DNA of 64,000 nucleotides, from the NCBI GenBank assembly GCA_041671225.1, contig JBAZBY010000001.1, positions 690,060-754,059 on the forward strand, read 5' to 3'. Below are positions 9,557 through 59,647 of the stretch, piece by piece. The notes beneath the pieces are model-generated. The model saw only the letters and a list, made by a program, of their open reading frames with translations, was not told the DNA's origin and did not search any database. Source of the DNA: Patescibacteria group bacterium. GTDB taxonomy: Bacteria; Patescibacteriota; Patescibacteriia; JBAZBY01. Positions within the stretch are counted from its first letter, which is position 1. Every line of letters starts with the position of its first letter. The position numbers were made by a program, and so were the translations under genes.

Positions 9557-9862
9557 ATGGTGGCGGAAAGCCACTATTTTATGCAGTATTTCGTATACAT
9601 CCTCACGAATAAGCGTAATGGAACGCTATATATTGGTGTTACGAACAATCTGGAACGACGCATGGTTGAGCATAAACAGAGGCTAGTTGAAGGTTTCTCC
9701 AAAAAATATGAATTGCACCAGCTTGTCTACTTTGAAAATACAAAGAGTATTGAAGCTGCGATATGGAGAGAGAAGTGTCTGAAGAAGTGGTACCGGAAGT
9801 GGAAAATACGGCTTATTGAGGAACAGAATCCTGAGTGGATGGATTTGGCTGAGGATTTTTGA
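9557..9862 (+). CDS. GIY-YIG nuclease superfamily protein (UPF0213/YhbQ-like)
   Basis: 'YFVYILTNKRNGTLYIGVTNNLERRMVEH' GIY-YIG motif; alternative start at 9581. Confidence 0.75.
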   Translation: MVAESHYFMQYFVYILTNKRNGTLYIGVTNNLERRMVEHKQRLVEGFSKKYELHQLVYFENTKSIEAAIWREKCLKKWYRKWKIRLIEEQNPEWMDLAEDF

Positions 9863-9866
9863 ATGT

Positions 9867-9891
9867 GGATGCCCGCCTACGCGGGCATGAC
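9867..9891. repeat. REP-like element copy B1 (reverse complement GTCATGCCCGCGTAGGCGGGCATCC)
   Basis: same GTAG loop and stem as copy A1; begins 5 nt after the GIY-YIG stop. Confidence 0.6.
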
Positions 9892-9898
9892 AAAAGGG

Positions 9899-9914
9899 TA
9901 CGCGGGCATGACAA
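9899..9914. repeat. half-copy of a REP-like element (tacgcgggcatgacaa), tandem duplicate of the B1 3' arm
   Basis: direct repeat of cgcgggcatgacaa at 9881-9894 and 9901-9914. Confidence 0.5.
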
Positions 9915-9938
9915 CGCATAATTACTTCTTCTCCTAAC

Positions 9939-9949
9939 GTCATTCCCGC
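9939..9949. repeat. REP-like half-site GTCATTCCCGC
   Basis: 5' arm only. Confidence 0.4.
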
Positions 9950-9956
9950 TGCCCTG

Positions 9957-9980
9957 TCATTCCCGCGAATGCGGGAATCC
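9957..9980. repeat. REP-like element copy B3 (GTCATTCCCGCGAATGCGGGAATCC)
   Basis: perfect 7-bp stem TTCCCGC/GCGGGAA with GAAT loop. Confidence 0.6.
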
Positions 9981-22422: not shown

Positions 22423-22591
22423 GAAGTTACAAAAGAGCCGTCGCAGATAATCAGCGCCGTCGCAAAAAAAGAAAACGTTCGCTCGTTACATTACACAGGG
22501 GATAAAACACTGGAGTTTTTCTTTGTTACACGTGCGCCGTCGCGAGGCGAGCGCCGTCGCAAAAAAAGTGGATAACCTCCTTGTTCGTGAC

Positions 22592-22665
22592 CTGGCCAGC
22601 ATTGCGTTTCCGTTCTTAACCATTTTCCGCCACCAAAATGGGTCTCTCGGAATCACACTGGCCAG
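22592..22665. repeat. 74-nt element bounded by palindromic CTGGCCAG octamers with an internal hairpin CCATTTT-ccgccacc-AAAATGG, copy a
   Basis: about 50-nt core near-identical to the copy at 23821-23896. Confidence 0.7.
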
Positions 22666-22887
22666 ATCAGGGATGAGGAAGTGCCTCGTCTCGATTGCTC
22701 CAATGTGGAGCAAAGGCGGCACGCACCTTAACAAGCGTGAATAAAGGCTAGACGATACCGTTCAATCCACATAATTGATGCGCGGTTTGGACTCGCGCAT
22801 CCTTCTGGTTCCACATGTTCCGGCAAACTGTACTCCCGTACAGCAAGAGGAGGACGGACCACTTGCAGTAAAACAAAGGAGCATCAC

Positions 22888-23292
22888 ATGCTAACATCCC
22901 CAGCTCCTATCGTTCTCGCAATTCCTGACATACAGCCCGAAGTCCGTTCCACGATCGTCGAACACATCGCGCGGGAAGAGCATGTCAATAAGGAGCGCGC
23001 AGGACGCATCTTCGATGCGCTTCTGCATGTCTTCGCCTTGGCGATGTGCTTCCAGCACAAAGTGTTTCCGCTTGCGCCGAGCATCGGAAGAGCGGAAACG
23101 ACGTTCCAGCAGTTCCCCGTTGCATACCAGGCGTATTGCAGAGCGCTTGGACCAAAGCCGGTGAGGGTGAGAACTGGTTCCTATGAGACCAGCGAGCCCA
23201 GCCCGTTCTTTGGTCCCGAGTACACGATCCAGTTCATGATCGCCAACGGCATCGTTTTCGACGAGGACGTCTGGCGTGAGAAAAAGGAGTAG
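22888..23292 (+). CDS. hypothetical protein, paralog 1 of a tandem pair (134 aa)
   Basis: SD AAGGAG; shares 'R.GR.FDAL.H..A.A..F' and 'F..A..EY..C..LG' blocks with the next gene; no known family. Confidence 0.6.
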   Translation: MLTSPAPIVLAIPDIQPEVRSTIVEHIAREEHVNKERAGRIFDALLHVFALAMCFQHKVFPLAPSIGRAETTFQQFPVAYQAYCRALGPKPVRVRTGSYETSEPSPFFGPEYTIQFMIANGIVFDEDVWREKKE

Positions 23293-23298
23293 AGCGCC

Positions 23299-23724
23299 AT
23301 GCAGACGCCACTTTCGCTGAAACCCCCAGTGGCCATCACTGTCCCGGCGGTGGCCTGGCCCTTCCGTGACGAGCTCATCGACGTGTTCGCAACCCAGGAG
23401 CGCATCTCCCGTTCTCGTTCTACCCGTGTCATCGACGCACTCTTCCACTTCCTTGCTGTGGCCGCGACGTTCCGGGGGCGAAACCTCAGACCCGCGGATG
23501 AGATCTCCGCAGCGTGGATGCTCTTCGTCGCATATACAAAGGAGTACACCGAGTTCTGCGACGAGCTCGGCGGCTACATCCACTTCCGGCCCGCTACCAG
23601 TCCCCGTACCATCGCAACCACCACGCCGGCGGATGCGATCAACCTCATGGAGAAGTTCGAGATCCCGTTCAACAAGATGGTGTGGATGCCGGAGTGCGTA
23701 TCTCCGGAGACGGTCAAGTCCTGA
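23299..23724 (+). CDS. hypothetical protein, paralog 2 of the tandem pair (141 aa)
   Basis: SD AAAAAGGAG; paralogous to 22888-23292. Confidence 0.6.
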   Translation: MQTPLSLKPPVAITVPAVAWPFRDELIDVFATQERISRSRSTRVIDALFHFLAVAATFRGRNLRPADEISAAWMLFVAYTKEYTEFCDELGGYIHFRPATSPRTIATTTPADAINLMEKFEIPFNKMVWMPECVSPETVKS

Positions 23725-23820
23725 TTCACGCAGATAGAGAACAGTAGAGGCTTCGGCCTTTATTGACATAATGGGGAGTGGTGGCGCTGGTGGCTGCTAC
23801 TCCCCGACCTTTTTCGCGAT

Positions 23821-23896
23821 CTGGTCAGCGCATTGTTTCCGTTCTTAACCATTTTCCGCCACCAAAATGGGTCTCTCGGAAGCAGTTCCTGGCCAG
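23821..23896. repeat. 74-nt CTGGYCAG-bounded element, copy b
   Basis: see copy a. Confidence 0.7.
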
Positions 23897-24048
23897 GTCG
23901 GGGGAAAGGAACAGTAACGTTACCCCGATGCCTATTTTCTTTTTTGGGGGCATTATTTTCACCGCATGTTTTATGTTCATCTTCAGCAAGAGACGACGCA
24001 TGAAAAAGCCGAATTCACAATATACGATTTTCATCTGGTGATTTCTTG

Positions 24049-58813: not shown

Positions 58814-58860
58814 ACAGGAGAGCGTTGACAAAAACGCTTATTTTTCCTATGGTAATCATC

Positions 58861-59470
58861 GACGCAACTTCACAAGATGGTCGCTCCGTCTTCGCCCCCT
58901 GCTTCGCAAAGGGCTGCGACGGACAAGCCCCGTAAGCACAAAAGGGCCTGTCCGCCGTAGCTCTGAACGGAGTGAGGAGCGAAGGCGGAGAGGAAAGTCC
59001 GAACACCCCACGTGGTGCTCGCGGCACTCTAAAAATGGGAGTGCGACGAGCGTCACGTGGAAGTGGATACCACCGAAATGGTGGCAGGAGTGATCCTAGG
59101 GAAAGTGCCACAGAGACAATACCGCTCCGTCTTCGCCCCCTGCTTCGCAAAGGGCTACGACGGACAAGCCCCTGTTATTGCATCGTGCAATAGGCCTGTC
59201 CGCCGTAGCTCTGAACGGAGTGAGGAGCGAAGGCGGAGTAAGGGTGAAAAGAGTGGGGTAAGAGCCCACAGGCAGGTCTGGTAACAGATCAGCGTGGCAA
59301 ACCCTATCCGGTGCAAGATCGAATAGGCTCGCGTGCTTCATTTTGTGAGGTGCGCCGAGCGGGTAGATTGCTGGATCGCGTTGGTGACAACGCGGCAAGA
59401 GAGATGATCATCACCTGCAAACCGTGAGGAATGTAGGGACAGAATTCGGCTTATCGTGAAGTTGCGTCCC
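58861..59470 (+). ncRNA. rnpB: RNase P RNA (bacterial type A core) with two large inserted hairpins
   Basis: P1 pairing 58861-58873 (gacgcaacttcac) with 59456-59468 (gtgaagttgcgtc); P4 'GGAAAGTCCGAACAC' at 58992-59006; J11/12-P12 'TAAGGGTGAAAAGAGTGGGGTAAGAGCCCAC' at 59239-59269; P13-like 'GGTCTGGTAACAG'; 3' P4 'ACAGAATTCGGCTTAT' at 59439-59454. Confidence 0.85.
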
Positions 59471-59647
59471 CAACTCATTTCGCGCTGCGGGTTTTGCGAG
59501 CTCATCACATGAGCTCGCCTCACCCTTCGCGCGAAGCCTCGTTTCTACGCCACAAACGCGTGCTACGTGTCGCGACGCCTTTCGCTCGCTACACTCGCTC
59601 AAGGCTGCTCCTTGTGCGCACCTCGTTTGCGGGGACCCCCAGAAGCT

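Follow-up and report, generated by a model that had tools for sequence, protein, structure and literature searches.

Near-identical hairpins at the P3 and P12 tips of a Patescibacteria RNase P RNA and their apparent relatives in 23S rRNA

The rnpB locus and its two long hairpins

The window, by which we mean the whole 64-kb stretch of DNA analysed here out of a 1.03-Mb genome, carries a functional-looking gene that we assign, from its sequence and predicted fold, to the type A RNase P RNA (rnpB) of a tiny, uncultured Patescibacteria (CPR) bacterium. The gene is 609 nt long (58861-59469, forward strand), its ends being set by helix P1, and it matches the Rfam model RF00010 in cmscan (195.7 bits, gathering score 100, E = 8e-62). 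Helix assignments rest on the full-length RF00010 alignment of the rnpB gene of a relative (locus L005), with which the window gene is collinear, and on a multiple alignment of five rnpB genes. The unconstrained minimum free energy (MFE) fold of the 609-nt RNA recovers P1, P2, P3, P8, P9, P12-P14, P15-P18 and P19. The features of the locus, each followed by its basis, are these (R1 is a covariance model of the hairpin family, introduced below):

58825-58853, + strand: putative sigma-70-like promoter, TTGACA at 58825-58830, a 17-nt spacer and TATGGT at 58848-58853 (sequence)
58861-59469, + strand: rnpB, bacterial type A RNase P RNA (RF00010; P1; MFE fold; collinearity with L005)
58861-58873 with 59456-59468, + strand: P1 (13 bp, 100% complementary)
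58876-58881, + strand: P2 5' strand, GAUGGU (sequence, cmscan alignment of L005, MFE fold)
58882-58990, + strand: hairpin copy 1, forming helix P3, 109 nt (repeat; fold; 112 bits with R1)
58990-59004, + strand: J3/4 and P4 5' strand, GAGGAAAGUCCGAAC, a universally conserved box (sequence; skipped by the RF00010 hit)
59008-59066, + strand: extra hairpin between P5 and P7, in a P5.1-like position (folds; shorter in relatives)
59123-59238, + strand: hairpin copy 2, forming helix P12, 116 nt (repeat; fold; cmscan; 109 bits with R1)
59407-59412, + strand: P2 3' strand, AUCAUC, partner of GAUGGU (sequence, L005 alignment, MFE fold)
59414-59437, + strand: P19 hairpin, 24 nt (multiple alignment, L005 alignment, MFE fold)
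59439-59453, + strand: P4 3' strand region, ACAGAAUUCGGCUUA (cmscan alignment; kept in all relatives)

Both strands of P4 (GAGGAAAGUCC... and ACAGAAYYCGGCUUA) are present and enclosed by P1 and P2, as a type A RNA requires, and P12, P13, P14 and P18 align to the type A model; an extra 58-nt hairpin stands where type B RNAs have P5.1, a site at which relatives carry a hairpin of 18-33 nt. The J3/4-P4 strand GAGGAAAGUCCGAAC is invariant across all five aligned rnpB genes, and the conserved GAGGAAAGUCC box (58990-59000) follows directly on the 3' side of the first hairpin copy. The RF00010 hit itself begins at 59009 and leaves out the true P1-P2-P3 and the GAGGAAAGUCC box, cmscan misreading the 59008-59066 hairpin as P1/P3. 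Upstream, 7 nt separate TATGGT from the start of P1, and TTGACA-N17-TATGGT, which is found at the same distance from rnpB in L003, L004 and L005, probably acts as the promoter of the gene.

A preliminary description of this DNA had recognised an RNase P RNA of about 610 nt with a type A core, and had ascribed its extra length to two near-identical hairpins of roughly 110 nt. The RF00010 score, the 13-bp P1 and the length of 609 nt agree with the former, and the two hairpins lie where they had been placed, at 58882-58990 and 59123-59238, both at the tips of helices. Their 5' arms (58882-58931 and 59123-59172, 50 nt) are 98% identical and their 3' arms (58945-58990 and 59193-59238, 46 nt) 100% identical, so that 95 of the 96 arm positions coincide; the apical loops, of 13 and 20 nt, bear no relation to each other, and arms more than 95% identical around differing loops are what had been described. 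The sole difference between the arms, G58916 against A59157, replaces a G.U pair by A-U and preserves the pairing. Each copy is an imperfect hairpin of about 40-46 bp, and both fold into the long structures expected of them (-67.2 kcal/mol, z = -7.7 for copy 1; -70.2 kcal/mol, z = -7.9 for copy 2). Two C.A mismatches break the basal stem of both, and folding is no more favourable for the sense than for the antisense strand.

The covariance model does not accommodate the RNA without large insertions, as had also been foreseen: cmscan reports about 90 nt as an insertion in the P12 loop, while the basal pairs of copy 2 are the P12 stem itself. The second hairpin is accordingly P12, and not an element just 5' of J11/12 as first thought. 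The placing of the first at P3, immediately 5' of P4, holds, both by the L005 alignment and by the conserved box directly after it. Copy 1 occupies the place of a 20-nt P3 in L005, CGCUCCGCC-GUAA-GGCGGAG, and the whole of that short P3 equals the initial 7 bp of P3 in the window. In P3 and P12 alike, the repeat runs exactly from the first to the last base pair of the helix. The outer parts of P3 and of P12 both derive recently from one imperfect hairpin of about 110 nt, which may have entered rnpB in two separate events or have been acquired once and then copied within the gene.

The sequence comes from a metagenome-assembled genome, and one might suspect that the repeat is chimeric or mis-joined, or that two GC-rich helices have converged by chance or composition, C-rich 5' strands being a tendency of both P3 and P12 in type A RNAs. 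Two Logan assemblies of other samples match the window at 100% identity over 12,239 and 4,760 nt; one stops exactly 30 nt into copy 1, as expected of a k=31 graph at a repeat, and the other begins 3 nt after copy 2. The same strain is present in SRR6484324 and SRR18595301. Such breaks of short-read graph assemblies at the repeat might be taken for a sign of a false join, but these independent assemblies follow the window without a difference as far as the repeat and into it, all four junctions between repeat and unique sequence are needed for a complete, collinear type A RNA with P3 and P12, and comparable long hairpins stand at these sites in relatives whose locus was assembled on one contig. 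Convergence would have to produce identity at 95 of 96 arm positions where 0 matches are expected by chance. The repeat is no assembly artefact, and we regard artefact or convergence, taken together, as highly improbable.

Turnover of helix tips in related rnpB genes

The conserved gene order RecJ - RNase H - rnpB - sugar transferase was used to retrieve eight further rnpB genes. The lengths of three peripheral helices in the window and in its close relatives, with the identity of each relative's RecJ to that of the window, are as follows:

Window: P3 109 nt, P12 116 nt, P19 24 nt
L003 (RecJ 76%): P3 106-108 nt, P12 98 nt, P19 102 nt
L004+L016 (RecJ 66%): P3 37 nt, P12 33 nt, P19 38 nt
L005 (RecJ 65%): P3 18-20 nt (CGCUCCGCC-GUAA-GGCGGAG), P12 109 nt, P19 104-106 nt

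The cores of these genes align almost base for base (>90% identity), whereas their hairpins at P3, P12 and P19 show no sequence relationship to one another, with lengths of 18 to 116 nt; the hairpins of about 100 nt are therefore recent, lineage-specific additions at three permissive tips. The P19 site, for instance, which is short in the window, holds hairpins of 102-106 nt in L003 and L005, and the long hairpins found at P3, P12 and P19, though unrelated to each other, cluster at 98-116 nt. The distant relatives L014, L018, L021 and L022 have an ordinary P3 and P12. The window hairpin is absent from the same sites in L003, L004, L005, L014, L018 and L022, and a possible diverged copy is the 110-nt P3 hairpin of L020 (44.8 bits).

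Likeness between hairpins of the same RNA is found elsewhere in the clade. P12 and P19 of L003 have a perfect basal stem of 17 bp in which 15 nucleotides per strand are identical between the two, with unrelated interiors, and P3 and P19 of L004 have in common CCCGC(C/U)UCUCAA...GAGAGGGCGGG (Smith-Waterman score 34, against a shuffle maximum of 21). Between RNAs, the whole P12 of L004 corresponds to the 3' arm of the L018 P19 (Smith-Waterman score 50). Hairpins within one RNA are often paralogous in this clade, the window's P3 and P12 being the most extreme case, and hairpin modules appear to be quickly gained, lost and swapped among P3, P12 and P19.

Relatives of the hairpin in 23S rRNA and elsewhere

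We scanned GTDB genomes and JGI metagenomes, two collections that do not include the source contig itself, for an exact 21/20-mer from the 3' arm and obtained 1 + 7 loci. Half of these (4/8) fall inside 23S rRNA genes. In L006 (a Candidatus Komeilibacteria MAG), L007 and L008 (= L010), a family hairpin of 107-115 nt forms helix 63 (H63) of the 23S rRNA, where it replaces nt 1703-1752 of E. coli rrlH. The window P3 aligns to the 23S gene of L007 with 81% identity over 105 nt, ungapped (BLASTN, E = 1e-23), and with 88% when the arms alone are considered. The covariance model R1, built from five members of the hairpin family, identified a second copy in the 23S gene of L006 (1877-1987, 85 bits), whose flanks map to nt 539-554 of E. 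coli rrlH. This is the tip of helix 25 (H25), the classic site of RNase III-type intervening sequences (IVSs) in 23S rRNA.

In an alignment of six family members 93% of cells are paired and 11 of the 41 pairs show compensatory changes, a level reached by none of 500 shuffles; this covariation supports the fold, and with it selection on the hairpin structure. In the 23S copies the sense strand folds better by 5-13 kcal/mol, and a basal duplex of 22 bp leads to a conserved, A-rich internal loop of 3x3 to 5x5. The identity of the hairpin arms between 23S genes (79-88%) tracks that of their flanks (68-88%), and the H63 hairpin appears to be a vertically inherited part of the rRNA. All strong copies lie at helix tips of stable RNAs and in the sense orientation. 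The remaining members are weaker: L009 has a degenerate copy beside a tRNA gene, the 3' end of the tRNA being duplicated there over 21 nt, L012 has a solo 3' arm in the rpmI-rplT spacer, the matches in L011 and L013 are doubtful, and a weak match in P19 of L018 is best in the opposite orientation. To judge by these similarities, the window hairpin is homologous to the hairpins at helix 63 and at the tip of helix 25 in the 23S rRNA of other CPR bacteria, and is one of a family of modules that expand helix tips in the stable RNAs of CPR.

Two further readings of the family were considered and set aside. The internal loop is no K-turn or loop E on inspection, since it is roughly symmetric, sets 5'-(C)AAA-3' opposite 5'-YGA(A)-3', and lacks the 3-nt bulge followed by tandem G.A pairs of the K-turn consensus. 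The invariance of the purine-rich 3' arm, which might be offered as evidence of function, is an ascertainment artefact of the exact 20-mer search, and the H25 copy differs there.

Origin of the hairpins and comparison with known elements

The preliminary description saw in the hairpins a small structured insertion that had been tolerated, possibly a mobile one, of which BLASTN might find further copies. Tolerated insertion fits the data, in that relatives with cores more than 90% identical have short or unrelated sequence at these sites, and in that the same family is present at 23S tips. Further copies were met with outside the window, in 23S genes of other CPR bacteria, and not within it: neither arm occurs elsewhere in the 64 kb at up to 3 mismatches (chance expectation 0 matches), sensitive BLASTN finds no additional hairpin in this part of the 1.03-Mb genome, and R1 run over it without filters detects only the two copies in rnpB. 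The many dispersed copies in both orientations that characterise MITEs and REPINs are thus not seen within the 64-kb window. The two insertion points, flanked by ...GATGGT and AGGAAAG for copy 1 and by ...CAATAC and TAAGGGT for copy 2, show neither a target-site duplication nor a common target motif. No transposase is found among the six window ORFs scanned against Pfam, and none is seen adjoining any copy of the hairpin. Autonomous mobility, the possibility originally raised, is unsupported, since neither target-site duplications, a third copy in the 64 kb nor a transposase could be identified. The same Pfam scan of six ORFs picks out a GIY-YIG nuclease ORF at 9557-9862 of the window, in a position unrelated to rnpB.

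Other searches gave no hold on the hairpin. Rfam at a relaxed E-value returned only chance miRNA-like hairpin matches over rnpB and no known family for the hairpin, the exact 20-mer of the 3' arm had no match in viral contigs, and nothing scored when the six-frame translations of the hairpins, concatenated, were compared with a protein database for spurious ORFs over the copies. A 37-residue translation from the window matched only a WD40-repeat protein in a representative library, which we dismiss as chance, and a REP-like reading of the 3' arm as 'GTAG + palindrome' was abandoned, GAAG replacing GTAG in L008 and L009. Other repeated hairpins of about 105-115 nt are present in the intergenic DNA of the window, and hint at a general process by which hairpins spread.

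The reading that we prefer, with a probability of roughly 0.55, is that an IVS-like helix-tip module was copied and pasted at the DNA level between stable-RNA genes and is tolerated at solvent-exposed tips. The module would have reached rnpB in this way by non-allelic gene conversion or by template switching between hairpin-forming sequences, seeded by a short stem homology such as UCCGCC/GGCGGA, with the organism's own 23S rRNA gene as the most likely donor, and would afterwards have been copied or homogenised between P3 and P12. We infer here the copying mechanism, the direction of transfer and the simple tolerance of the hairpins. Copy-and-paste is favoured because the repeat spans the helices exactly and has no target-site duplication, because the strong copies are all in sense orientation at helix tips with no other copy in 64 kb, and because the short P3 of L005 (CUCCGCC/GGCGGAG) matches the bases of the window and H63 hairpins (UCCGCC/GGCGGA), which offers the microhomology. 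In bacterial RNase P, P3, P12 and P19 are peripheral, variable in length and turned outwards from the catalytic core and from the surface that binds tRNA; the hairpins would be tolerated because these helices are of this kind and lie away from the active site. They would persist with the length of P3, P12 and P19 unconstrained and the core (P1, P2, P4, J3/4, P7-P11, P15 and P18) intact. We put the chance that the hairpins are retained in the mature RNase P RNA at somewhat better than even, and consider their excision by RNase III unlikely, if quite conceivable.

Some observations sit less well with copy-and-paste. Weak or partial members occur outside helix tips, beside the tRNA gene in L009 and in the spacer of L012, and that in the L018 P19 has the opposite orientation; these contexts fit a freely inserting DNA element better than conversion from helix to helix. 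The loops, moreover, are unrelated though the arms differ at 1 of 96 positions, and a simple recent duplication needs an extra event. Against inert tolerance stands the fact that the arms of the 23S hairpins are as conserved as the flanking rRNA, which suggests function.

REPINs and MITEs are REP doublets that form hairpins and are moved by RAYT or IS transposases. The hairpin might be a non-autonomous mobile element (a MITE, a REPIN or a PATE-like palindrome) on which a transposase encoded elsewhere acts in trans. P3 and P12 would then have received it in separate insertions, and selection on essential RNA genes would spare only those insertions that lie at permissive tips. Its two inverted arms of about 46-50 nt round a variable spacer, making a hairpin of about 110 nt, have the architecture of such elements, which likewise occur in several copies per genome, and near-identical arms with differing loops are usual among members of one element family. 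The unrelated contexts of members and fragments (H25 and H63 of 23S rRNA, sites beside tRNA genes, the rpmI-rplT spacer), the possible inverted copy in the L018 P19, the possible second-lineage copy in the L020 P3 and the other repeated hairpins, of about 105 nt, in the window's intergenic DNA can all be read in the same sense. We nonetheless hold this origin to be distinctly unlikely. Dispersed intergenic copies are wanting in the 64-kb window, as are other copies in about 150 kb of relatives' loci, target-site duplications, a common target motif and a transposase beside any copy; unlike REPINs and MITEs, the strong copies sit precisely as the tips of stable-RNA helices in sense orientation, with repeat boundaries that are the helix ends exactly, and the H63 hairpin seems to descend vertically within 23S rRNA, its arm identity following that of the flanks.

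The conservation of the 23S arms bears also on a reading of the hairpins as processing or binding modules with a function common to 23S rRNA and RNase P RNA. They could be RNase III substrates excised in the manner of IVSs, giving an RNase P RNA in three pieces, or sites at which a single protein docks on either RNA, comparable to L7Ae and its K-turns in archaea. Occupation of helix 25 by the family accords with processing, short CPR insertions at that helix having been interpreted as RNase III-type IVSs (PMC11270868), and the 22-bp basal duplex and A-rich internal loop of the 23S copies are compatible with RNase III substrates. The clustering of hairpins at 98-116 nt at P3, P12 and P19 suggests a constraint on length, and several hairpins of one RNA with common basal stems are what a common recognition element would give. 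However, the two C.A mismatches of the RNase P copies and the missing advantage of their sense strand look like relaxed selection at the RNA level, inspection shows an internal loop at odds with the K-turn consensus, and close relatives are without the module at the same sites, so that it is not required for RNase P function. The 64-kb window of the 1.03-Mb genome contains no RNase III signature motif. A shared function of this kind seems to us rather unlikely, and the fuller proposal that modules of about 110 nt move between H25, H63, P3, P12 and P19 and are, in RNase P, excised by RNase III or docked by a shared protein seems doubtful.

Copy-and-paste of an IVS-like module, our preferred reading, invites comparison with several known systems. 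IVSs of 23S rRNA lie at helices 25 and 45 in Salmonella, Campylobacter, Coxiella and others, and we know of no report of helix 63 as an IVS site. As in these, the tip of a variable helix in an essential stable RNA has given way to an extended stem-loop of about 100 nt, here at P3 and P12 with the base of the helix intact; its presence among close relatives is sporadic, and homologues occupy H63 and, in the Komeilibacteria 23S rRNA, the IVS site at helix 25. Unlike in these, the host is RNase P RNA, with two copies in a single RNA of 609 nt. Excision by RNase III is the defining behaviour of IVSs, and the window hairpins are likened to them here by sequence and predicted fold. A tolerated repeat family is also reported from cyanobacteria: Vioque is said to have described, in 1997, STRR repeats within helix P12 of the RNase P RNA of heterocyst-forming species (cited in PMC2858038). 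There too a genomic repeat family is tolerated inside a peripheral helix of a type A RNA, but STRRs are tandem heptanucleotides dispersed in the genome, whereas here a single hairpin of about 110 nt is found in two helices and is shared with 23S rRNA. K-turn/L7Ae modules of archaeal rRNA and RNase P (P12, P16) resemble our case in that the same local module recurs in both RNAs; they differ in that the internal loop here is off consensus, that no binding protein is known and that the host is bacterial.

Among CPR bacteria themselves, 23S genes have many short, ORF-less insertions at the IVS sites 23IS2 and 23IS4 (PMC11270868), and no sequence matching the hairpin was found in the supplement of that paper. 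RNase P RNAs of CPR bacteria are known with large helix extensions or with missing helices, P15 being one of those affected (Lui et al. 2021, PMC8172020). These divergent RNAs are from the same phylum-level group, and their covariance matches likewise need manual refolding for long extensions, but neither near-identical duplicated hairpins in one RNA nor homology between an extension and an rRNA helix is described there. Our search of the literature turned up no description of an RNase P RNA that carries IVS-like elements or the same helix twice, and none in which its expansions are homologous to those of rRNA.

The link to rRNA is the most informative feature of the rnpB hairpins. One and the same sequence module can, it appears, form helix-tip expansions in both RNase P RNA and 23S rRNA, which points to a common process, be it recombination, mobility or shared recognition, shaping unrelated stable RNAs in the genome-reduced CPR. 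The locus offers a concrete case for the origin and spread of expansion segments and IVSs, and for a ribozyme that might work in pieces in vivo; were the hairpins excised by RNase III, this would be the first bacterial RNase P RNA to occur naturally in fragments, its pieces kept together by P1-P3 and P12 stubs. There are practical consequences as well. Hairpin repeats of this kind break short-read assemblies inside an essential marker gene, and annotation by covariance model truncates such rnpB genes, the loss here amounting to 148 nt that include P1-P3 and the GAGGAAAGUCC box.

Hairpin modules in the RNase P RNAs of relatives

When the rnpB genes of relatives are compared, hairpins belonging to different helices (P12 and P19, or P3 and P19) are found to have identical basal stems that enclose unrelated interiors, and in one case the entire P12 of one organism is the 3′ arm of P19 in another.

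Stretches shared between different helices of rnpB in relatives (L003, L004 with L016, and L018 are their loci)
L003 12489-12586 and 12764-12865: P12 and P19 hairpins with a common basal stem
L004 12220-12256 and L016 173-210: P3 and P19 hairpins with a common basal stem
L004 12371-12403 and L018 2876-2958: entire P12, found as the 3′ arm of P19

Basal stems common to different helices, together with the P12 that recurs as a P19 arm, show that helix-tip modules are swapped among P3, P12 and P19 in these genes. The family of the ~110-nt hairpin that forms P3 and P12 in the window may also occur at P3 a second time, independently, in the rnpB of a more distant lineage (GCA_040960375.1, locus L020). 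P3 is short in L018 and L022, to which L020 is more closely related.

L020 1487-1596: P3 hairpin of 110 nt, scoring 44.8 bits with the covariance model of the hairpin family and sharing CCGAACGAAGUGAG

Family members in 23S rRNA and beside a tRNA gene

The family is also found outside rnpB. The 23S rRNA gene of a Candidatus Komeilibacteria MAG (L006) carries two members, ~75-80% identical to each other.

L006 1877-1987: family member at helix 25 of 23S rRNA
L006 3202-3312: family member at helix 63 of 23S rRNA

Further downstream in this gene lies an ORF with an apparent LAGLIDADG-like motif, as read by eye. At a second locus (L009 868-1135) a degenerate copy adjoins a tRNA gene, the 3′ end of which is duplicated over 21 nt with a second degenerate hairpin arm between the duplicates, an arrangement suggestive of either tandem duplication or a scar left by integration.

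Additional structures within and downstream of rnpB

Window 59008-59066: additional rnpB hairpin, 58 nt, lying between P5 and P7
Window 59470-59647: noncoding stretch of ~175 nt between rnpB and a sugar-transferase gene

The additional hairpin topologically takes the position of P5.1 in type B RNase P RNA, and because of it cmscan wrongly places the start of rnpB at 59009; the corresponding hairpin of relatives measures 18-33 nt. The noncoding stretch opens with a 57-nt hairpin (59478-59536, z = -5.9), is partly conserved in the relative L005 and is missing from L003. It could combine an rnpB terminator with a 5′ leader belonging to the polysaccharide gene cluster.

Other repeated hairpins of the window

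Window 22575-22682 and 23808-23909: ~105-nt hairpin, distinct from that of rnpB, in two direct copies
Window 22891-23769, minus strand: 292-aa ORF enclosed by these copies
Window 9557-9862: 101-aa GIY-YIG nuclease ORF
Window 9866-9980: 115-nt hairpin, fold -57 kcal/mol, z = -8.1

The two direct copies have a 47-nt core, GTTTCCGTTCTTAACCATTTTCCGCCACCAAAATGGGTCTCTCGGAA, that is 100% identical between them; searches returned no Rfam family for the copies and no Pfam match for the ORF. The 115-nt hairpin, immediately downstream of the nuclease ORF, contains internal repeats, with GCGGGCATGAC and GTCATTCCCGC each present twice.
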